From: Felis catus
Lineage: Eukaryota
Length of the DNA: 64,000 bases
Direction: 5' to 3'
Assembly (NCBI RefSeq): GCF_018350175.1
Contig: NC_058368.1
Location: forward strand, 1,054,001-1,118,000
Below, piece after piece: positions 14,020 through 55,591 of the stretch; the stretch's first letter is position 1, and every line of letters starts with the position of its first letter. Both the position numbers and the translations under genes were made by a program. The notes beneath the pieces were generated by a model. The model was given only the letters and a program-made list of their open reading frames with translations, was not told the DNA's origin and did not search any database.

Positions 14020-14890
14020 TATTTTTCTTAAGTTTTTATTTAAATGTTTATTTTGAGAAAGAAAGATTGCATGCACATGTGAGTGGGAGAATGGCAGAAA
14101 GAAGGGGGGAGAGAATAGACCCCGGGCTTATCCCATGACCATGAGATTACAACCTGAGCTGAAATCAAGAGTCGGACACTCAACTGACTGAGCCACGCAG
14201 GACCCCTCTTAAGTTTTTATTTAAATTCCAGTTAACATACAGTGTAATACTAGTTTCAGGTGTATAATGTAGTGATTCAACTCTCCTGTACGACACCTGG
14301 TGCTCACTATGACAAGTGCTCTCCTTAATCCCCATTACCTACTGAATCTCCCCCATCCACCTCCCTTCTGGTAACCATTAGTTGTCTATAGTTGAGAGTC
14401 TGTTTCTTGGTTTGCATCTCTCTCTTTTTTACCCTTTGTTTTGTTTCTTAAATTCTGCATATGAGTGAGATCATAGATATTTGTCTTTCTCTGACTGACT
14501 TATTTCCCTCAGCATAATACTCCCTAGCTCCATCCATGTCCTCGCAAATGCCAAGGTTTCATTCTTTTTTTTTTATGGCTGAGTAATACTCTATTGTGTG
14601 TGTGTATAAAGATACGTATATGTATGTGTATGTGTGTTCATATACATACATACATATATTTATATACATGTATATATATACATATACACACACACAGACC
14701 ACAACTTCTTTATCCATTTGTCAATCAGTAGACACTTGGGCTGGTTTCATCATTTGACTGTTGTAAATAATGTTGCTATATAAACATTGGAGTACATGTA
14801 TGGCTTTGAATTAGTATTTTTGTATTTTTTGGGTAAATACCTAGTACGATTGCTGACTCGTAGGGTAGTTTTTAACTTTTTGAGGAATGT
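14020..14890 (-). mobile_element. Carnivore L1 3' end with a SINE in its tail and a (TA/TG/CA)n microsatellite
   Basis: Strongly similar to the L1 3'UTR at 9785-10320 (ttaacatacagtgtaat...tagtttcaggtgtataat). Confidence 0.88.
14047..14206 (-). mobile_element. Can-SINE in an L1 tail
   Basis: TSD cttaagtttttatttaaat. Confidence 0.85.
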
Positions 14891-19220: not shown

Positions 19221-20479
19221 TAGATTTTGTATTTCTTCCTAGGGTAAGTTTTGGCAGTGTGTGTATCTAGGAATTTAGCCATTTTATTTTGGTTATCTGA
19301 TTTTGTTGGCATATAATTGTTCATTGTGCTCTCTTATAATTGTTTCTATAAAATCAGTAGTGATGTCTTACTTTAATTTCTGATTTTGATAATTTGAGAT
19401 TTTCTTTTGCTTCATAGTCTAGCTAAATATTTAATTTTTTCAAAGAATCACCTTTTAATTTTGTTGATGTCTCTTTTTTTTTCTCTATCTGTGCACTAAT
19501 CTTTTGCATTCTTTCTGCTAGGCTTGGGTTTAGCTTGCAGATTCTGATTTCTTAAAGTATAAAAGTTATTGATTTCGGATATTTTTAAATGTAGGTGTTA
19601 ATAGCTGTAAGTGTTCTGCTGAGCACTGCTGTCATTGCATTCCATATTTTGATATGTTTGTTATGTTTGTGTTTTGTCTTGTAAATTATAGGAAAAAAGT
19701 ACTCATAAATTAACAGTACAGTAATACTGGCTTTCTGTTGATTTATGTAGGTAATTTCACTTACATTCTTTATTTCTTATGGCTTCAATTTATTCTGTAG
19801 TGTGTTTTTATTATTGCCTGAAGGGTAGCATTTCATGCAGGTAGTAACATTTCATGCAGGTAGTAAACTCCTGCTTTTGTTCTCCTGGAAATGTCTTAAT
19901 TTCTCCTTAATATTGGAGGAATTATTTGCTGGATTTAGAATTGTTAGTTGACGTTTTGTGTTGTTGTTGATCACTTTAAATATGTCATCTCACTAGCTTC
20001 TGGCGTCCATGGTTTCTGATGAGAAATGAACTGGTAATCTAAATTATATTGAGCATTCATTGCACGTGATGAGTTCTTTCTTAAAATTATCTATCTTTGG
20101 TGTCTATAATTTGATTATTATGTGTCTTGTTGTGGATATCTTTCAGTTTATCTGACTTGGAGTTTGTTGAGCTTGTTGGATGTGTGTCATCCAGCATTTG
20201 GGGCTTTTTTTGCCATTATTTCCTCAAATATTTTTTCCTGTCCCTTTCGTTCTGTTTATGATACATATGTGGGTATGTTTGGTAATGTTTTGTAGATTCC
20301 TCAGGCTCCATTCATTTTTCTTCCCTTTTTCCCTTGCTCCTCAGACTGGATAGTTTCAGTTATTCTCTCTTCCAGTTTACTGATTCTTCTGCCTCTTAAG
20401 ATCTGCTATTGATCTTCTCTAGTGAATTTTTCATTTGTTATTATATTTTTCATTTACAGAATTTTTACTTGGTTACTTT

Positions 20480-28692: not shown

Positions 28693-29539
28693 ATGGACAC
28701 AGGTTCAGTGGGAGGATTAGAATTGACTGATCAGACTCCTGTTTTATTAGGGAGTACGGCCATGGCAACTAGTCTCACCAATGTAGGAAATTCATTTAGT
28801 GGTCCACCTAATCCTTTAGTTTCTAGATCTAATAAATTTCAAAACTCATCAGTGGAAGATGATGATGATGTTGTTTTTATCGAACCCGTACAACCTCCCC
28901 CACCTTCTGCACCAGTGGTAGCTGATCAAAGGACTGTAACATTTACATCATCAAAAAATGAAGAACTACAAGGAAATGATTCCAAAATTCTTCCATCCTC
29001 AAAAGAGTTGGCTTCTCAGAAGGGAAGTGTAAGTGAGACAATTGTCATTGATGATGAAGAGGACATGGAAACAAATCAAGGGCAAGAGAAAAATTCCTCC
29101 AATTTTATTGAACGGAGACCTCCTGAATCTAAAAACAGAACCAATGATGTGGATTTCTCCACTTCCAGTTTTTCAAGAAGTAAGGTAAATGCAGGAATGG
29201 GTAATAGTGGTATCACCACAGAACCAGACTCTGAAATTCAGATTGCTAATGTTACAACCTTAGAAACAGGTGTAAGCTCTGTGAATGATGGCCAATTAGA
29301 AAATACTGACGGGCGAGATATGAACTTAATGATTACACATGTAACATCACTGCAGAATACCAACTTGGGAGATGTCTCTAACGGACTGCAGTCAAGTAAT
29401 TTTGGTGTTAATATACAAACATACACCCCATCTTTAACTTCACAGACCAAGACTGGAGTAGGACCTTTTAATCCTGGTAGAATGAATGTGGCAGGAGACG
29501 TATTTCAGAATGGAGAATCTGCAACTCATCATAATCCTG
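28693..29539 (+). CDS. ZMYM2: ZMYM2 first coding exon (exon starts at 28683 with 10 nt of 5'UTR; codons 1-282 plus 1 nt)
   Basis: Translation [28 protein letters not shown]...ESATHHNP is recognisable as the ZMYM2 N-terminus. Branch-like ctgac, pyrimidine tract and AG at 28681-82; ATG 28693 in ggcATGg; donor G|gtaagc at 29540. SIM-like motifs DDDDVVFIE and TIVIDDEED. Confidence 0.97.
29185..29445 (+). other. ZMYM2: Candidate in-frame exitron (261 nt, codons 165-251) inside ZMYM2 coding exon 1
   Basis: AAG|gtaaat ... tttaacttcacag|ACC; length divisible by 3; removal gives SRSK|TKTG. Confidence 0.65.
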
Positions 29540-33425: not shown

Positions 33426-33939
33426 TGGAAAAAGCTGTTTTTGAAAAGGTGTTTTGAATATAATCATATATACAGTTTATCAGACCTGTATTATATTTGT
33501 CAAGTGTTTGGCCAAAATTTTATTATAACTTTCATTATCAACTTTTATGTTTATGTATGTGTTCCTTACTTAAAGGAATATTCTGTAAATTCTTGTTTAA
33601 TCAATAATGGCTAATATTTTTTAATGCTTCCTCTATGCTACTTACTATGTTTTATTGCATGTATTATCTTATTTAATGTTACCATTCCTATGAGGTTGGT
33701 ACCATTTCCAGTTTAGAGAAGAGTTAGGTACAGAGTTTAACTTTCCAGTTTAGTAGGTGGAGTCTAAATGTCAACTAGGCATTCTTAGTCCTTGGGTTTT
33801 TACCTCTCTGCTACATTGCTGCCTTATTAATGTCTTAAACTTGTACAGGATGGGAAGTTAAAACTGTTTCTTTGATAGAGATCCCAATGTGTATAAATAC
33901 CTGTTTCATTTATTCTTCCTTGTGCATTTTGTTTTTAAG

Positions 33940-34225
33940 ATTCTTGGATTTCCCAGTCAGCTTCATTTCCTCGTAATCAGAAACAACCAGGGGTGGATTC
34001 TTTATCACCAGTGGCCTCACTTCCTAAACAAATTTTCCAGCCTTCTGCACAGCAACAACCCACTAAACCAGTTAAAGTCACTTGTGCAAACTGTAAAAAA
34101 CCTTTACAGAAGGGACAGACGGCTTATCAGCGAAAAGGATCAGCTCATCTCTTTTGTTCTACCACCTGCCTTTCTTCCTTCTCTCACAAGCCTGCTCCAA
34201 AGAAACTTTGTGTTATGTGTAAAAA
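33940..34225 (+). CDS. ZMYM2: ZMYM2 coding exon 2 (286 nt; MYM finger 1 and start of finger 2)
   Basis: tttaag|ATTCTTGG continues the frame ([10 protein letters not shown]...CANCKK...LFCSTTC...CVMCK); donor AA|gtaagg at 34226. Confidence 0.97.
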
Positions 34226-34241
34226 GTAAGGTTTACCTTTC

Positions 34242-34362
34242 TCTCCTTCTTTTTTTTTTTTTAAATTAAGTACAGTTGATACACAGCGTTACATTAGTTT
34301 CAGGTGTACAATATAGTGATTGGACAAGTCTCTAAGTTATGCTGTGCTCACCACAAGTGTAG
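34242..34362 (-). mobile_element. Short 5'-truncated L1 3' end (carnivore L1 / L1MA9-like) with 16-bp TSD
   Basis: Poly-T followed by typical L1 3'UTR (tacattagtttcaggtgtacaatatagtgat); TSD gtaaggtttacctttc at 34226-41 and 34363-78. Confidence 0.9.
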
Positions 34363-35733
34363 GTAAGGTTTACCTTTCAGCATAATTCCATGTGGTTGAA
34401 TATTGGTGGTATATAATTTTAGGAAAATTCTGAGTCTTAGAGGCAAATTATGATGTTTGGAAAATTGGTAAGCTAGTTGTTTGAATCTTAAAGCAAAACT
34501 CAGATTTGCAGTGGCTTTGGAGGATTACCTACTACCTCTGGGTGGCTGATGATTAAAAGGCTTCTTATTTGGGGTTGATTTAGATACCAGGCCCTTGTAA
34601 TTAATTTTGGCTCTAATCTCCATTGAACTCCTTGAATTTGTCAAAATGCATGTTTATTTGCATTATTAATTATTAGAATTCTAGCCAGATAAAATTGTTT
34701 TGCAATTTATATCACATTAAAATAGGTCAAATTTTGTACTATCTTCATATTAAGATTATTTTAAATTGGCAAGTCTTTGGATTTTATGTTTTTATGTTAG
34801 TTTTGAACATTCAGTCATTACAATGCCAGTGTTTTAAGACACAAGTAGCAGTTTTTGGATAGCTTTGGGGAGAGACAGTTCTGTCTTACATTATTTTTTA
34901 GTTCTTGCTTCACTAGTTAAAAATAGTGGAACATGGTATATTATGTGCACGGTCGAACCAGGTGGGCTTTCCTTCTGTGCCATCTCTTGGAGCGGCCCAA
35001 ATTTGGGAAGATAGTTTAGATCTTAGAACTTTGAAAAGGTTCTCTGTACAAGTTTAATAAATGCAAGTATTGGAACGGTTACATAGTTTTTAGATTGCTT
35101 TACAGTAGTAGACTTTTACATACTGTAGTATAGGATCTTGAAATTCAGAATTTCATTAAAGGAAAACTTCACAGGTCATCACTTTTGTTTCCTACCATTT
35201 CGAATTGCATTACAGAGCTGTACAGAATGGTAGGTGGGGTCCTTTTGGATTATGGCTATAGGGGTGTACCTAAATAAGTTCATATATCCTCTAGAATATA
35301 TGTCATATTTCTGTGACCTAGATCGTTCCAAGTTTTCTACTTACCTATGGGAAAGGAATTGACTAGGTGTTATAAGTTTGTATCTCAGGAAATTAGGCTT
35401 TGATGTTAAACTCCATATATAAATAATAACAACTGATTTTTTTTACTTTTATTTTTTAAAGTGTTTCCAATGTCTGAAAGCCTTGTTAAGGAGTTTGAAG
35501 ATAAATTGGGTACTGACAAAGATTTAATAGTATGAAATCATTTTGGTTCCTTATCTTCTGTGTTCACATTTTATTGCCAAGAGTTTTTAAATAGTAAACG
35601 TGATTTAATGGATCTAAAAATGGTGTTTGATTCCCAGGGTAAAATATGTGGAAATTAGAAATGTTAATTATTACTCTTACGTTTGATTTTTTTTAAATAC
35701 AAGTTGACTTTAAGCTGTTCACTTACTTTTCAG

Positions 35734-35899
35734 AGATATAACTACGATGAAAGGAACTATTGTCGCTCAAGTGGATTCAAGCGAATCCTTCCAGGAATTC
35801 TGTAGTACATCTTGTTTGTCTCTCTATGAAGACAAACAGAATCCTACTAAAGGAGCTCTAAATAAATCAAGATGTACAATTTGTGGTAAACTAACAGAG
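35734..35899 (+). CDS. ZMYM2: ZMYM2 coding exon 3 (166 nt)
   Basis: ttttcag|AGATATA; DITTMKGTIVAQVD...EFCSTSC...CTICGKLTE; donor GAG|gtttgt. Confidence 0.97.
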
Positions 35900-36631
35900 G
35901 TTTGTATTTTTGTGCCTTCTCTCTTAGTTCTAACTAATGTGAATATTCTTAGCTTTATTTAATAGTTACGACGTCATCAGTATATAGTTCTTTAAAAGTG
36001 GAGATGTATATTCCATTATGTAATCCCTGTGGGAGAATGATTTAGGAAATTTTAAAATATAATACTTTTTCCCTGAGGTTTGGAGCATGTAGAGACAACC
36101 ATAGTGTTTAAATATATAGACTTGACTCGAAACTACCATTCTTAAGAAAGAGAACAAATGGAGGAAATATTTTTAATACCTTAACATTATTCATGTGGTA
36201 TTAAAGTTTTTGCATTTGATTATATTAAAAGAAACCTGTGTATTATACATACCTCATCTGAATTATTTATAACATTGGTTTTCTCCTACCTTTCTAGAGC
36301 AGTGTATTTTATTTATAGTTCCTTTTGGATTTGTCTAAAGATTTCCAGTCTCTTTGTTTTAGAAGTTTTATCCAAACTGGGTTGTTTCCTATCATTTTTA
36401 GATCTCTCTAGAGAAGTTCGTAGTGATGTCGCTAATGCTGACCCCTCTGCCATAAGTGTATTTATTGTGTGTATAAAAATAAGTTCAAAGAATCACGAAC
36501 AGTACTTTGTCTTTCTTTTTCCCTAAATAAGCCTTCCACAGAAAAATTATTGAGGCATTTTCTATTGGAGCACCTTGTTATTTAGCTACTTGTGATACTC
36601 ATTTATTTTTTAAAATTTTGTTTGTTTTTAG

Positions 36632-36844
36632 ATTCGCCATGAAGTTAGCTTTAAAAATATGACTCATAAGCTGTGCAGTGACCACTGCTTTAATAGATAC
36701 AGAATGGCCAATGGTTTAATAATGAATTGCTGTGAACAGTGTGGAGAGTACCTGCCCAGCAAAGGTGCTGGAAATAATGTCCTGGTGATTGATGGTCAGC
36801 AGAAAAGATTTTGCTGTCAAAGCTGTGTCAGTGAATACAAACAG
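36632..36844 (+). CDS. ZMYM2: ZMYM2 coding exon 4 (213 nt)
   Basis: tttttag|[25 protein letters not shown]...CEQC...[12 protein letters not shown]; donor CAG|gtaact. Confidence 0.97.
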
Positions 36845-37108
36845 GTAACTCATGATCTAATCAAAATTGGCCATTCTTTTGAATATGTTTTAAATTGCTA
36901 TAATAGCTTTATTTTAGCAGCATTTATTTATACTCTAGATTTATCCTGGAATCTCACTTAATTCCATTGTTATCTTCATCTCTTGGAGATAACATATCTC
37001 AAATGAATACTGATATATGTAAATTACTAGAAATTGTGATTTTTCATATAATGGTAAATGCTAGCAGAATGATTACTCTTTTGAAATATTACATATGTAT
37101 TTTTTGCT

Positions 37109-39742: not shown

Positions 39743-42700
39743 GTAATGTAAAATTTTTAATTATTTTCAAATTTAACAGTTTTTTTTTCTTTTTATTGTT
39801 TCAGGATTTTGTTTCACATACTTTCCTTACTCCCAGACTATAAAGGAATGCTTTTCTTATTTTCTTTCTAATGTTTGCAAGCCTTCATTTTAATATTTAA
39901 ATCTTTAATGCATGTAAGGGAATTTATTCTGGTATATTGTTAAATTATGGGTCAAATATTTTTTCCATCCAAAAGACTGTCATTGAGAATCAGCATCTTT
40001 ATGTCAAAATATCCCATTATAGAACAAGGGATTTCATTCTGTTAGATCAGTTCTTATTACACTTACTCATAAATACTTTATCTTTTTGTTACTATTTTAA
40101 ATGAGGTTTTCTCTTCCATTATTGTGTGTGTATATGTACATATATGTAGGTACATATATGTATGCCTACATATATTTTTAAATTGATTTTAAATAGCTGC
40201 TGTCTAACTAAATCATCATTATTGGTTGATTTTCTTGGATTTTTGACTAAGTCATCGTATCATCTGCAAGTAGAGAAAGTTTAGATCTTCCTTTACATTT
40301 CTTGTTCCCATTATTATTTTGTCTTGCATAATGGCTTTCCTAATAACTCCAGTAGAGTTATAAAGAGTGGAAGTATCTTTTTGTTTTTCCAGTGGGAATG
40401 CCTTTGGTATTTCCTCATTAAATTATTTGGCTTTAGGGTTGAGGTCAATATATATTAAATATATTAAAGAAGTACCCACTGATTTTTGTTTTATTAAGTA
40501 TTTCACCAAAAATGAATGTTGAGTTTTGAAGGTTTTCAGTGTCTATGGAAGTGTTATGTGATTTCTTCCCTCCTTTAAATCTATTAATATGTGACTTTTT
40601 GTAATGAATTTCCTAAACCATGTAACCATTCTTGCATTGCTAGAATAAGCCATACCAGGTCATTGTTATATTTTAAATGTTTAGTTGGAACTGTTAATAT
40701 TTTATTTAGTATTTTCCCATTAGTATTCATAAGTGACATCATGTTTAATTTTTGGGGGGATGCATTCTTTTAAGATATCAATAGGATATTTATTTTAAAA
40801 AATGCTTGAGTAAAATTCAAATCCATACATGCTTAAAACAATAAAAATGAAAATAAATGAATTAAATATTCAACTCAAAAAGTTGTAAAAAGAACAAACT
40901 AAAAGGAGAAGAAAGAAATAAAGGTAAAAGTAGAAATTAATGAGTTAAGAAATAAAAACAGTACCAAAATAATTCAGAATACTGCTTCTATGATAAATCA
41001 GGTCTGTGAAAAACTAGACCAACTGATCATCAATCTAATCAGGAAAAGAGGCTTAAAAAATGGGTAATTTCACAAAAATAAGTGACAAGGTAGACTGAAG
41101 CATCAAAACAGAGGAAGTTGAAGAAAATCAATTATAAGGGACTACTTTGTGTGCAGCTTTATATAAAAATACTGACAACCCAGACTGAGTAATTTTCTGT
41201 GAAAATAATTTTTTTGTGTGTGTGAAAATCTAATTTACCTAAATTGACTCCAGATGATACAGTAAAGCAGAGAATCTCCCTAGAAGAAATAGAGATAGTT
41301 ATCCGTGAACTAACCCACAAGGAGAAACAGACTCAGATGGTTTCATAGGAAAATTCCATCAGATTTAAACTAGGTAATCTGAGTGCTATTTTAAATCATT
41401 CCAGAGCATAAAAAAGGTGTAAAATAACTTGAAAAATTTTTAAAAATTGTGATAAATATATATAACCGAATTTCCAATTGTTCTGAAACATTTTTAAGTA
41501 TACAGTTTAGTGGCATTAATTGCATTCATAATGTGCAACCATTGCCTCTATTTTCAAAACTTTGCAATGACCCAAACAGAAACTGACAAACCAGTAACTC
41601 CTCATTTTCTCCTACCTCCCTGATCCCTGATAATCTCTAATCTTCTTTGTGTCTTTATGAATTTTCCTATTCTAGATATTTCATATACTTGAAATCATAC
41701 ATTACTTTGTCCTTTTGTGTCTGGTTTATTTCACTTAAACATTTGTTTTTTATTATAATCATCTCAGTAGGTGTGGGGTGGTATCTCCAGTTCTCATTTG
41801 CATTTCTGTGATTACTAATGCTGTAGAGCATATTTCCATGTGCTTATGGACAATTTGTGTATCTTTGAAAGTATTGAAGTCCTTTGCCCGTTTTGATTGA
41901 ATTGCATTGTTTTTCCTTTTATTTTTCAATTGTAGTAGTTTTTTATATGTTCTGAATATTAATCCCTTATTTGACATATGGTTGCAGATGTCGTCTCCTG
42001 TGTGTTGCCTTTCTGCTTTTTTGATAATGTCATCTAAATGTACAAAAATTTTGATGTTAATAAAGTCCAGTTAACCTCTTTTTTCCTTGTTGATTATGTT
42101 TTTGGTCCATACCTAAGAATTTGTTTGCAAAATCAAAAGTTAAGATGGTTTATCCCTATGTTTTCTTCAAGACGTTTATGGTTTTAACTCATGTTTAGGT
42201 CTTTGGTCCATTTTGAATTAATTTTTGTTTAGGATATGAGATAGGCATCCAGCTTCTTTCTTTTGTATGTGGAAATACAGTTGTCCCAGCAGCATCATCT
42301 GTTGAAAAGAGTATTGTTTCTCCCATGGAATGGACTTATTATACTTGTGAAATATTAATTGGCCATAGATGAGTAGGTTTATTTCTGGACTCTCATTGGA
42401 TATTCCATTCATCTACGTGTCTGTTCTTATGCAAGAACCACACTATTATGATAACTGTGTAGTAAGTTTTGAAATTAGGAAATGAGTCTTCCAACTTTGT
42501 TGTTCTTTAGAGATTGTTTGGATATTCTAGACTCATTGCAATGTTATGTGAATTGGAGGATTAGCTTTTCCATTTCTCCAGAAAAGGCTATTAGAATTTT
42601 GATAGTGATTGCATTGAACCTGTAGATTGCTTTGGGTACTATTGACATTTCAACGTGTTAAATCTTCCTGGCTGTGGATATGGGTTGTCTTCCTATTTAT

Positions 42701-43505
42701 TTAGACCTTTCTTAATTTCTCTTAGCAGTTTTTTCATAGTTTTCAGTGTACAAGTCTTCCATTTTCTTGGATATATTTATTTCTAGGCATTTTATTTTTA
42801 ACACAATTGTTAATGTAATTGCTTTATTAATTTCCCTTTCAGATTGTACACTGCTAGTGTTTAGAAATACAAGTGATATTTAAGTGTTTATCTTGTACCC
42901 TGCAACTTTGTTGAATTTGTTTTTTAGCTCTAGTAGCTTTATTGTGGATCCCTTGGAATTTTTCCCATCTAGTTATGTCATGTGCAAATAGTAGTAGTTT
43001 TACCTCTTTGTTTCTAATTTGGTTGCCTTTTCTTTCTTTTTCCTAAATGTTTTGGCTAGAACTTTCACTATTTTATTGACTAGAAGAAGTGACGAAATTG
43101 AGCATCCTTGTTTTGCTTCTAATCTTGGAAGAAAAGCCATCTATCTTTGACCATTGAGTCTGATGCTAGTTGTGGGTTGTTCATACATGGCATTTATTAT
43201 GTCACAGTACTTTTCTAATATTCTTAGTTTGTTGAGTGTTTTAGTCATAAAAGTATGTTGGATTTTGTCAAACTTCTTTACCATTTGATTATCATGTGGT
43301 TTTGCCTTCATTATAATCATGTGGTTTGTTACTTTCATTATTTTACGTTGAACCACTCTTTGCATTACTAAGATAAACCCCACTTGACTGTGTTGTATAA
43401 TACTTTCAGTATGCTGCTGAATTTGCTTAACGTTTAACCTCTTAAATTTATATCTAATTTAAGCTGGTAACAACTTAACTGGCATTTAAGAACTCTGCTC
43501 CTGTA

Positions 43506-43694
43506 GGGGCTTCTGGGTGGCACAGTTAAGTGTCTGACTCTTGGTTTCATCTCAGGTCATGATCTTGCAGTTTGTGAGTTTAAGCCCCACGTTGGGCTCT
43601 GAGCTGCCAGTGTGGAGCCTGCTTGGGACTCTCTTCCTCTCTCCTTCCCTCCACCCACCCTCCTTTCTCATAAACTTAAAAAAAAAAAAAAAAA
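43506..43694 (+). mobile_element. Can-SINE
   Basis: TSD gaactctgctcctg. Confidence 0.9.
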
Positions 43695-43885
43695 GGAACT
43701 CTGCTCCTGCTCCTGTATAGCTCCAGCCCCATTTATGTTACAATAAATTACATCTTAAACATTGTTTGCACAATAACAGGTTTACAGTTATGTTTTGTAC
43801 ATTTGTCCTTAAAATCATGTAGGAAGTAAAAAGTGGATTTATAAGCTAAAGTATTCCAGTACTACGTTTTATATTTGCCCATGTA

Positions 43886-44112
43886 GTTTTTTTTTTTTTT
43901 TTAATTTTTTTAACGTTTATTTATTTTTGAGACAGAGAGAGACAGAGCATGAACGGGGGAGGGTCAGAGAGAGGGAGACACAGAATCTGAAACAGGCTCC
44001 AGGCTCCGAGCTGTCAGCACAGAGCCCGACGTGGGGCTCGAACTCACAGACCGCGAGATTATGACCTAAGCCAAAGTCGGCCGCTCAACCGACTGAGCTA
44101 CCCAGGCGCCCC
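43886..44112 (-). mobile_element. Young Can-SINE without visible TSD
   Basis: Near-identical to the copy at 20480-20700. Confidence 0.93.
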
Positions 44113-45657
44113 TGCTAAAGAGTCTTATTTGTTCATTCTGTTACTGTCTAGTTTCCTTTCCATTTCAGCCTAAATCTTTGACTGTCTTTAACAATTCTTT
44201 AGAGTAGGTCTGGTGGTAACAAATTCCCACAGTTTTTTATTTGATATGTCTTTATTTGTCCTTCATGTTTGGATAACAGTTTTGCCGGGTATAATATTTT
44301 TGTTTGAAAGTTTTTTTTCTTTCAGCATTTTATATATGTCCTCTCACTGCCTTTTGGCTTCCATGGTCTCTGATGAGAAATTGGTGGAAAATCTTACTGA
44401 GGTTTCTTTGTACTTGATAAGTAGCTTGTCTCTTGCTACTGAAGATTCTCTGTGTCTTTCAACAGTTTGATTATAATTTGTACTGTTGTGTGTCTTTTTG
44501 AGTTTATCCTACTTATAATTTGTTGTGCTTTTCAGGTTTGTGGATTTCTTTACGATCATCAAATTTATGAAGTTTTCAGCCATTGTTAAAATAAAAATTT
44601 GCTTGTTCTCTCTATTCTTTTAGAGCTGTCATAATGTACATGTTGGTCTGCTTAATTTGTCCTATAGGTTCTTTAGACTTTGTTCACTTTTTTTTTTTTC
44701 ATTTTCTTTCTGTTCTTTAGACTATATTTAATTTCAATTTTGGCCTTAGTACTGCTGGTGAAAGTTTGACTCTGCTAGTTCTCATCTTGACTGGTAGGTG
44801 ACAAGGTACCTTGTTACTTTCTGATAGGTTAAGATGTTCAGGCTCCCTACTTGACCTTTTCTTATGTCACCCTAGCTGGGTTGCTGGCGTGGGGTACCTC
44901 ATTATAGCCAGGCAAAGGTGGAGTCTAGGCTTTCTACTTGTCCTTTCTAGTGTGGGTGGGATTGGTGCCACATTGCTCCTGTGGTGTTTGGATTGAGTGG
45001 AGGGTCTGTTGACTGAAAGTTTTCTGTCCTTCTAGGTTGTAATTCCAGTTGTATTTCTCCTATAGCTGTGTCGTTTCTGTTGCTGGTTTTAAGATTTTTT
45101 TCCTTTGTTTTTATTTTTATCCAAATTTTAATATTATTTAAAATTTTTCAGAAATTTGACTCTGATATATTGTGATTCCTTCAGTTTATCCTTCCTGGGG
45201 TTTGCTTAGCTTCTATCTGTAGGCTTATATCTTCTGCCTAGTTTGCAGTGTTTTCAGACATTTTTTTGAGAACTTTTTCAGCTTTATCCTCTTTTTCCTC
45301 TCCTTCCAGGACTCTAGTGATATGAAAGTTAAATATTTGTTACAGTCTTACAGATCCTTGAGGCTCTGTTCTTTTTTATTTTTTCCATCCAAGCCTGTTT
45401 TCTTTCTATTCAGATTGGATAATTTCTGTATTTTCCTTCACTGCTTCTTTCCTCTTTGTTCTGCTATTGTTTTTTTCTTGTTGTTTACTAATAATTTTTT
45501 TTAGAATGGTTTTAGTGTTACAGAAAAATTAAGAAGATAGTACAGTGTTCTCATGGTAAGGTCTTCTGTTGACACCTTAAATTAGTAAGGTAATATTTGT
45601 TACATTTACTGAACTCGCATTACGGAAAGTCCATAGTTTATTTGGATTTCCTTCAGT

Positions 45658-53908: not shown

Positions 53909-55591
53909 GTTTGTTATTTATTTTGGATCTTTCCCACTCCCAACAAAATACACACGGGAAATAAACAGTGTAATATGCTTCATCTTTATTTAATATGTTA
54001 ACTTGCGTGTTGTTTGTTGAGGGCCAGACTGCAGGCGGAGGTCATAGGGTCACGGTAATAGACATGGCTGCAGATGCTTACTGTGTGGCATGGAGACTCT
54101 GATTGACTTTTCAGCTGTTATTTATAGAACAGACTTGAAGGAAAATAAGTTTTAGTATAATTGAGCGCGATGCCTGATGTGTACTATTTTCTTAGTGGTT
54201 TCAATAACATGTGACTCTGAAGGAGACTTCTGTTTTATGATAAAACAAAAAACTATGACAAAACTATGACCAACATGAACAAAACATACGACAACTATTT
54301 GTCAGAAATCTGCCAGTTAAAAAGGGGATTGGACTTGTTACAGTGGGCCCTAATTTAATACAAAATCAGTTTAGGGAGACCTTTTTCATTTTTGTAAAGG
54401 TAAAGAACTTTCTGGCATACTTCTTCAAAGTTGGGGTTATGGATAATTTCAGAAGATGTGTTACTGGAAGTGTTCAGACTTAAACTGACCACTGGGAGGG
54501 AATAGTTGAAAATGGGATTCAGCACTAGTTAAGTGGCATGAGTAGGTTTACTTATGTGAAAAATTCAAAATGTTTTTGAAATACTTGTGAATACTTGAAA
54601 TATGTATGAAATACCTATGTGAAAAATTCAAAGATTCAATCCAGTACATAAAGTGATGCTTCATGATAGTGAATCTTCCAGCAGTTCCACAATGTTGTAG
54701 GTACTGTATTCTGCATTATATAGCCTGAAAATGTAGTCTCTTAAGTATGTGACAGTAGTTGTAACCATTATTATCACTTAAATTCAGGTGGTTTTTAATT
54801 CAACCAGGTAAATGTTGTTTTTGTTAATAGTTATATCCTCCACTGGGTTAAGTTAATAAGCCATATTCATAACTAAACTTTTATTTTGGAAGCTGGGATC
54901 GTGGCAATTGAGAAATCCTTTAGAGTGGTAAAATACTGCTTCTGACTTGGCTTTTCCAAAACTAGAAATTAAGGAATAAGGAAGGATTAATTAGATGAGA
55001 GAATGACAGAGTCTTTGACATGCTGCTTCTCAGACTTCACCTTTATGTATTACTTTTTGATGTTTGAAGTGTTAGTGGAAAATGTTTTTTAAAAAATGTT
55101 TTCACTACTTTTTTCATGTAACTGAAACTTGTATTGCCCATGATTTGATGAGACCACTCGTATATGTGCATTGTATGTACACTGTATCTTGTAAATACTT
55201 AATGTGGATTCTTATAGCCAGATAAGCCTGTAAGCAGCCTCCTCACTATAACGGCGTAAAAGTAATACAAAGTTGACAAATAGACAAGCAGCATTTTTTT
55301 TCCTTTCTCTGTATCTTAAAGCAAACCATAGATTTTGAGCTTTATGTCTTTATTAGATGTTTTTCCATTTCAAAATAAGGTAATAGGATAGTATTTCATT
55401 TGTTTTGAAAGAATACTTAACTTTAATGGACTTGCAGTTTTTTTGAAGTATAAGGACACTTGCTGGTTTTTATTTAAAAAATGTATTCACCTGATGGTTA
55501 CTGTCTTAATTCTGCATGTTTTGTTTTTTCACAAATCTTGATTGTGTTGTATGTTGTATGCAGAAGTTTTAAGAAATGTTTAAAAAACATC

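Follow-up and report, generated by a model that had tools for sequence, protein, structure and literature searches.

A second 5' splice site sequence, stronger in appearance than the native one, lies 137 nt downstream of the donor of ZMYM2 coding exon 2. It is best explained as part of a fixed, old L1 retrotransposition scar, the decoy donor being little used and tolerated (probability roughly 0.75). The analysis covered a 64,000-nt stretch of a 2.43-Gb genome (Felis catus; the whole stretch is hereafter called the window), and all coordinates below are those of the window unless stated otherwise.

Results

Coding exons of ZMYM2: The window carries the 5' half of ZMYM2 on the + strand. Coding exon 1 was assigned by protein search (431 proteins at E ≤ 1e-20; the best 120 of the 431 were almost all ZMYM2), with 98% identity over 282 aa to proteins that bear the name ZMYM2 in their sources. 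The best match, the ZMYM2 protein P0002, was aligned to the window by tblastn and gave ten matching blocks across it, the first four at 28693-29538, 33939-34226, 35732-35902 and 36632-36847; residues 1-282 of P0002 were the query for exon 1. The exons are as follows.

ZMYM2 coding exon 1: 28693..29539, + strand; open frame from the start codon to the donor CTG/GTAAGC; protein match and tblastn.

ZMYM2 coding exon 2: 33940..34225, + strand; 286 nt, in frame; MYM finger 1, with CVMC as the first half of finger 2; phase 2 end (AA/).

ZMYM2 coding exon 3: 35734..35899, + strand; second half of finger 2; donor GAG/GTTTGT; Pfam and alignment with P0002.

The number given to exon 2 in the earlier note was right, coding exon 1 being that at 28693-29539. 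The frame of exon 2 reads ...FCSTTC...KKLCVMCKK and runs beyond the exon end into AAG TAA; the exon holds an MYM-type zinc finger (Pfam zf-FCS, E 2.4e-10), matches PDB 2DAS (ZMYM5) with E 8e-27, and is colinear with residues 283-381 of a ZMYM2 protein. Exon 3, preceded by ...ttttcag, was found by Pfam to hold the second half of another finger (E 1.8e-8), finger 2 being divided between exons 2 and 3. P0002 reads CVMCKKDITTMKG across the 34225/35734 junction, and joining of the native donor to 35734 restores the ZMYM2 reading ...CVMCKK DITTMKG... of that protein. The introns that flank exon 2 measure 4.4 kb and 1.5 kb. In a ZMYM2 intron further downstream an older L1 body was noticed (40000-45000), with minus-strand broken frames typical of L1 ORF2 at 41759-42070 and 43141-43458; its 3' end gave no match to the insert studied here.

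Direct repeat and insert: The repeat search gave two 16-nt copies of GTAAGGTTTACCTTTC, 100% identical, at 34226-34241 and 34363-34378 (spacing 137 nt); the first begins exactly at the GT of the intron after coding exon 2. Between them lie 121 bp (34242-34362). The elements follow in order.

TSD copy 1: 34226..34241, no strand assigned; the opening 16 nt of the intron; identical to copy 2 (100%); a single homologous 16-mer in the paralog described below.

Non-T stretch of 8 nt, TCTCCTTC: 34242..34249, − strand; between TSD copy 1 and the T run; not common to the relatives.

T13: 34250..34262, − strand; L1 poly(A) tail on the opposite strand; relatives are T-rich at the same place.

5'-truncated L1 3' end, 100 nt, antisense to ZMYM2: 34263..34362, − strand; genome matches, relatives, ORF2.

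TSD copy 2: 34363..34378, no strand assigned; followed by sequence homologous to that after the single 16-mer of the paralog.

The T13 run is thus separated from TSD copy 1 by 8 nt; read in the L1 sense, the tail is A13 and then an octamer rich in purines (34242-34249). This octamer could be the end of a patterned L1 tail or a very short 3' transduction. The 100-nt piece has at least 2476 candidate places in the same genome, and 39 other places that were scored showed 86-90% identity; a wider query gave the same picture. All nine relatives inspected (9/9) have a T-rich run at the place of T13, and all share the same further sequence beyond ...GTGTAG; the window switches there to the second 16-mer, which places the 5' truncation of the insert at 34362/34363. 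In one relative, followed over 7.5 kb, broken frames were found on the opposite strand within 1.5 kb; one of them aligns with residues 874-921 of human LINE-1 ORF2p (E about 1e-12; five PDB sequences). Pfam assigned none of four short L1 ORF remnants to an L1 family, and one remnant was without a match among the PDB sequences. The genomic relatives and the ORF2p match show the insert to be the very 3' end of an L1 in antisense orientation to ZMYM2; the 121-bp antisense L1 3' fragment that had been reported 16 nt past exon 2 was thereby confirmed.

Both 16-mers abut the insert to the base, one on the tail side and the other at the truncated L1 end. Non-simple 16-mer pairs no more than 300 nt apart arose 0.04 times per shuffled window (fifty dinucleotide-preserving shuffles of the whole window). 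The nick site on the + (primed) strand reads CCTTTC/AG. The L1 endonuclease consensus is TTTT/AA, of which this is a one-off variant, and the likeness to an L1 endonuclease site claimed earlier for TTTC/A holds. All hallmarks of target-primed reverse transcription that were tested (exact target-site duplication, T tail, homology to an ORF2-bearing L1, TTTT/AA-like nick) were found, and an origin of the insert by this route is evident from them.

Two more diverged antisense L1 3' ends were observed in the window (9788 and 14214). A perfect 20-nt direct repeat (14026-14045 / 14207-14226, spacing 181 nt) surrounds an apparent antisense carnivore SINE that sits in the tail of the antisense L1 at 14214; this repeat probably arose by target-site duplication as well. 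Two more non-simple perfect direct repeats (≥16 nt, within 300 nt) were found at 19829-19847 (spacing 19) and 54553-54569 (spacing 63).

Paralogous empty site: A ZMYM5-like paralog of exon 2 was found 130 kb upstream, on the opposite strand; it has an intact 96-codon frame, 88% amino acid identity and the LTKPAKITC signature of the PDB chain named ZMYM5.

ZMYM5-like paralog exon: G000:C1:957363-957647 (locus L013, 1498-1785), − strand; donor AAA/GTAAG with a stop just beyond.

Similarity to the window at the DNA level (87%) begins 24 nt ahead of the exon and stops exactly at 34241, the last base of TSD copy 1. The start of its intron is a single 16-mer, differing from that of the window at 3/16 positions, with no insert; after 8 nt the paralog resumes as the window does after TSD copy 2, with the same 8-nt offset (21/27 identical). 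The homolog of the sequence from 34379 onward thus stands directly after the 16-mer of the paralog, and no pyrimidine tract is present. Since the paralog has one 16-mer and lacks the insert, ZMYM2 has 137 extra bases (121 + 16), as an origin by target-site duplication predicts. A degenerate pattern (exon end + GTRAG) was found in none of the stretches of the metagenome contigs (0).

The reading that the 16-nt repeat arose by chance, or by a local duplication unrelated to the L1 piece, is accordingly left with next to no probability and looks already refuted: no point was found in its favour, and the shuffle level, the exact abutment of the copies on the insert ends, the single copy in the insert-free paralog and the TTTC/A nick site all stand against it. 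The perfect 16-bp duplication that the earlier note had described as starting at the intron GT was borne out by the same results (16/16 in the repeat search).

Age of the insertion: The 100-nt piece was aligned to 29 relatives, selected because they resemble the query, under the assumption of a star tree. The mean Jukes-Cantor distance was 0.160 from the window copy to the relatives and 0.162 among the relatives; the star-tree branch of the window copy (0.079, with an error of about 0.03 on 100 nt) equals the family median (range 0.033-0.140). The mammalian neutral rate is near 2e-9 per site per year, and a branch of 0.079 then makes the insertion probably tens of millions of years old, as judged from sequence divergence, and not recent. 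An L1 divergence of ~0.08 speaks against a recent event. The TSD copies are unchanged and the insert is ~8% diverged; about 2 changes would be expected in the two 16-mers, and P for none is about 0.13 (estimate). The lack of changes in both is not significant, yet it gives no argument for decay of the copy.

Comparison of the two donors: Both sites were scored by fixed-register U1 pairing, by duplex energy and with a position-weight table.

Native 5' splice site AAA/GTAAGG: 34223..34231 (cut 34225/34226), + strand; 5 contiguous U1 pairs and 1 isolated; −5.0 kcal/mol; 4.47 bits.

Decoy donor look-alike TAG/GTAAGG: 34360..34368 (cut 34362/34363), + strand; 8 contiguous U1 pairs, one of them G-U; −9.9 kcal/mol; 5.97 bits.

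The exonic TAG of the decoy comes from the truncated L1 end, and its GTAAGG from TSD copy 2. That the copy fits the consensus better at −1 had been noted before and is correct (TAG vs AAA); at −3 the copy is worse (T vs A), which partly offsets the gain. None of the other GTs in 33940-34700 exceeded 3.7 bits (same table). In four contexts the native site had a predicted unpaired probability of 0.18-0.25, the copy one of 0.28-0.33; the predicted accessibilities are similar, and this modelling does not tell the sites apart. The 16-mer contains UUACCU (in 34232-34241 and 34369-34378), a sequence similar to the 5' end of U1 snRNA and able to pair with the donor before it. This stem is two pairs longer at the copy (AG at −2/−1), where a 30-nt piece folds with −5.1 kcal/mol vs −2.9 kcal/mol for the native site. 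As a silencer, the hairpin at the copy was rejected: it is no better than chance (z −1.5; 15/200 shuffles fold as well).

Word shares in sequencing runs: For the region 33940-34420, a share of sampled words of about 0.57 is expected from exon 2 alone and of about 0.87 from the exon extended to 34362. All six RNA-labelled runs (6/6) hold 0.52-0.61 of the words by run index. Another 14 runs of unmarked kind, from eight studies and with one organism label, hold 0.87-0.96; the run list was ranked by share and is silent on absence, and these runs show only that the insert-bearing stretch occurs in several samples.

Discussion

Formation of the scar: In the proposed course of events, the L1 endonuclease would have nicked the + strand at CCTTTC/AG, 16 nt into ZMYM2 intron 2 (coding numbering); target-primed reverse transcription would have copied the last ~100 nt of the L1 RNA and its tail; the insert would have been joined after severe 5' truncation, and a staggered second nick would have left the 16-bp duplication. 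Since the stagger began at the first base of the intron, the intronic part of the donor (GTAAGG...) was duplicated with it; a good exonic half would by accident have come from the truncated L1 end (...GTGTAG), so that the copy looks stronger than the native site.

Predicted consequence of use of the copy: Were the exon extended to the copy, translation would meet a stop at once.

In-frame TAA, read when the exon is extended past the native donor: 34227..34229, + strand; 133 nt upstream of the would-be 34362/35734 junction; from translation.

The usual rule for nonsense-mediated decay (NMD) is a stop more than ~50 nt upstream of an exon junction, and the stop at 34227-34229, 133 nt before 34362, lies within its range. 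Finger 2 being split over exons 2 and 3, a transcript stopped here encodes one finger only. Both the immediate stop (AAG-TAA) and the stated outcome, NMD or a one-finger truncation if the copy is used, were therefore correctly foreseen in the earlier note. Leakage through the copy would be removed by NMD.

Choice between the donors: The antisense L1 tail has left a long pyrimidine tract beside the native donor.

Pure pyrimidine tract, 27 nt: 34236..34262, + strand; +11 to +37 of the native donor; composed of the TSD end, the 8-nt stretch and T13.

PTB and hnRNP C classically bind tracts of this kind. The U13 core of the tract begins at +25 of the native donor; the copy has no such tract after it. 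Three published rules would point to the native donor when applied to this arrangement. The first is proximity. Exon 2 would be recognised by exon definition between long introns, and the donor nearest the upstream 3' splice site would be preferred at similar strengths. Carranza et al. (2022) described a bias towards the upstream 5' splice site in exon-definition events with delta MaxEnt within 2.5, and exclusive use of the upstream donor in minigenes with two identical strong donors (PMC9225289). On these grounds no special silencing is needed for the exon-proximal donor to be the expected winner when flanking introns are long and the donors are about equally strong (PMC9225289). The second rule concerns TIA position: a U tract 10-28 nt downstream of a donor favours the intron-distal donor (PMC2964331; Wang et al.); the tract overlaps this interval, TIA binding being predicted here, and TIA-type proteins on it would favour the native, intron-distal site. 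The tract can only be a helper, since the native donor was functional before it arose and no tract is present in the paralog. The third rule is LINE repression: MATR3 and PTBP1 are reported to repress splicing in and around LINEs (Attig et al. 2018), and the antisense LINE sequence may recruit these repressors.

Taken together, the analysis suggests that the copy is a silent or rarely used pseudo-site and that the native donor does essentially all productive splicing, as we infer from these three rules; the overall change in ZMYM2 output is likely to be slight and not a target of selection. Among the points that count against a silent scar are the following. The copy is the better match to U1 (−9.9 vs −5.0 kcal/mol; +1.5 bits), and the pyrimidine tract, an AG (34269-70 or 34274-75) and the copy form an exon-like unit of 87-92 nt, which could help U1 to settle on the copy.

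The same two points support the view that the copy is a working alternative donor, with a sizeable share of 34362→35734 splicing that leads to TAA and NMD and lowers or tunes ZMYM2 dosage, as a cost or as a selected valve. The undecayed state of the copy (16/16 identical) and the distance of 133 nt from stop to junction, as usual for NMD, are also in line with it; in the competition events of PMC9225289 the stronger site was dominant in 86%. The word share of 0.52-0.61 in 6/6 RNA-labelled runs fits the exon alone, as far as word shares can be read, and no sign of selection on the copy beyond chance was seen. ZMYM2 is described in the literature drawn upon as dosage-sensitive, heterozygous loss of function being harmful in people and mice, so that a large constitutive loss, and its fixation, is unlikely. 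The exon-definition proximity and TIA position rules favour the native site (PMC9225289 and PMC2964331), and no mechanism was found that links the ZMYM2 protein to donor choice. Use of the copy on this scale is on balance improbable.

A slightly smaller chance is given to silencing of the copy by a specific local device, either the AGGUAA/UUACCU hairpin or hnRNP C/PTBP1 bound to the U tract. The lower folding energy of the 30-nt piece at the copy (−5.1 vs −2.9 kcal/mol), the 27-nt tract as a textbook PTB/hnRNP C site (predicted binding) and the repressors reported on LINEs (Attig et al. 2018, as above) speak for such a device; the hairpin is matched by 15/200 shuffles (z −1.5), longer contexts predict the copy to be slightly more open than the native site, and the tract lies 100 nt upstream of the copy, beside the native donor.

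The choice offered by the earlier note, an actively silenced copy or a lineage-specific dosage valve, omits the exon-proximal preference, and nothing was found to support the valve; from the sequence evidence, the regulatory reading of the copy appears unsupported. The further claim that the ZMYM2 product is linked to retroelement silencing is in print: ZMYM2 represses transposable elements according to PMC10629813 and PMC10415128. The presence of an L1 in the gene of an L1 silencer is a coincidence unless shown otherwise.

A more far-reaching version, in which the L1 scrap acts as an exon-like decoy, its recognition keeps 137 nt and the stop in the transcript, and MATR3, PTBP1, hnRNP C and TIA1 set the productive fraction of ZMYM2 as a dosage control of the carnivore lineage, is very doubtful; if it were true, an L1 fragment would control the dosage of ZMYM2, a repressor of young L1s. 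A cassette exon formed from the L1 piece was considered and rejected: the distance from the native donor to the candidate AGs (34269-70, 34274-75) is only 45-50 nt, which is below the minimum length of an intron.

Relation to known systems: The old and probably little-used scar in ZMYM2 resembles other 5'-truncated L1 insertions made by target-primed reverse transcription in its 16-bp TSD, T13 tail, extreme L1 3' end, severe truncation, TTTC/A nick and empty site in the paralog. It differs from the usual ones in that the stagger starts at intron +1, so that the TSD carries the donor core, and in the 8-nt non-A stretch that follows the tail. The event is an ordinary kind of event and a tidy example of it.

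De novo L1-endonuclease insertions in NF1 are comparable, with L1, Alu or poly(T) sequences that lie between a few and about 200 nt away from exon-intron borders and interact with the choice of splice site, including a ~120-bp poly(T) insert 3 nt from the border (PMC3219598). The NF1 insertions are new and disease-causing and all those described there disturb splicing (PMC3219598), whereas the ZMYM2 insert is old, apparently fixed and has left the coding junction intact. A literature search on splice sites duplicated by TSDs, made at the level of listings, gave no paper devoted to the phenomenon, the NF1 cases being the nearest.

The arrangement is also that of competing tandem 5' splice sites (PMC9225289): donors 137 nt apart and of similar strength, one 3' splice site and long introns, for which upstream use is predicted. 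Unlike the donor pairs of that study, the ZMYM2 sites are identical from +1 to +16, one being a copy of the other, and the usage given here is a predicted one. As in donors controlled by TIA1/TIAL1 (PMC2964331), a U/pyrimidine tract stands at +11 to +37 of the intron-distal donor and none follows the intron-proximal one; unlike in those cases, the U13 core begins at +25, at the edge of the interval of TIA action, the native donor predates the tract, and the role of TIA is a predicted one.

A copy that was both used and regulated would amount to an L1-derived switch for unproductive splicing, placed in a dosage-sensitive L1 repressor; nothing was found in support of this. As a scar, the locus is a clean natural example of how a target-site duplication can clone a splice-donor core; with the antisense orientation, the U tract must come to stand next to the original donor, and the copy at the opposite end of the insert. 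The result is a natural minigene, in which a weaker exon-proximal donor is set against a stronger intron-proximal one.
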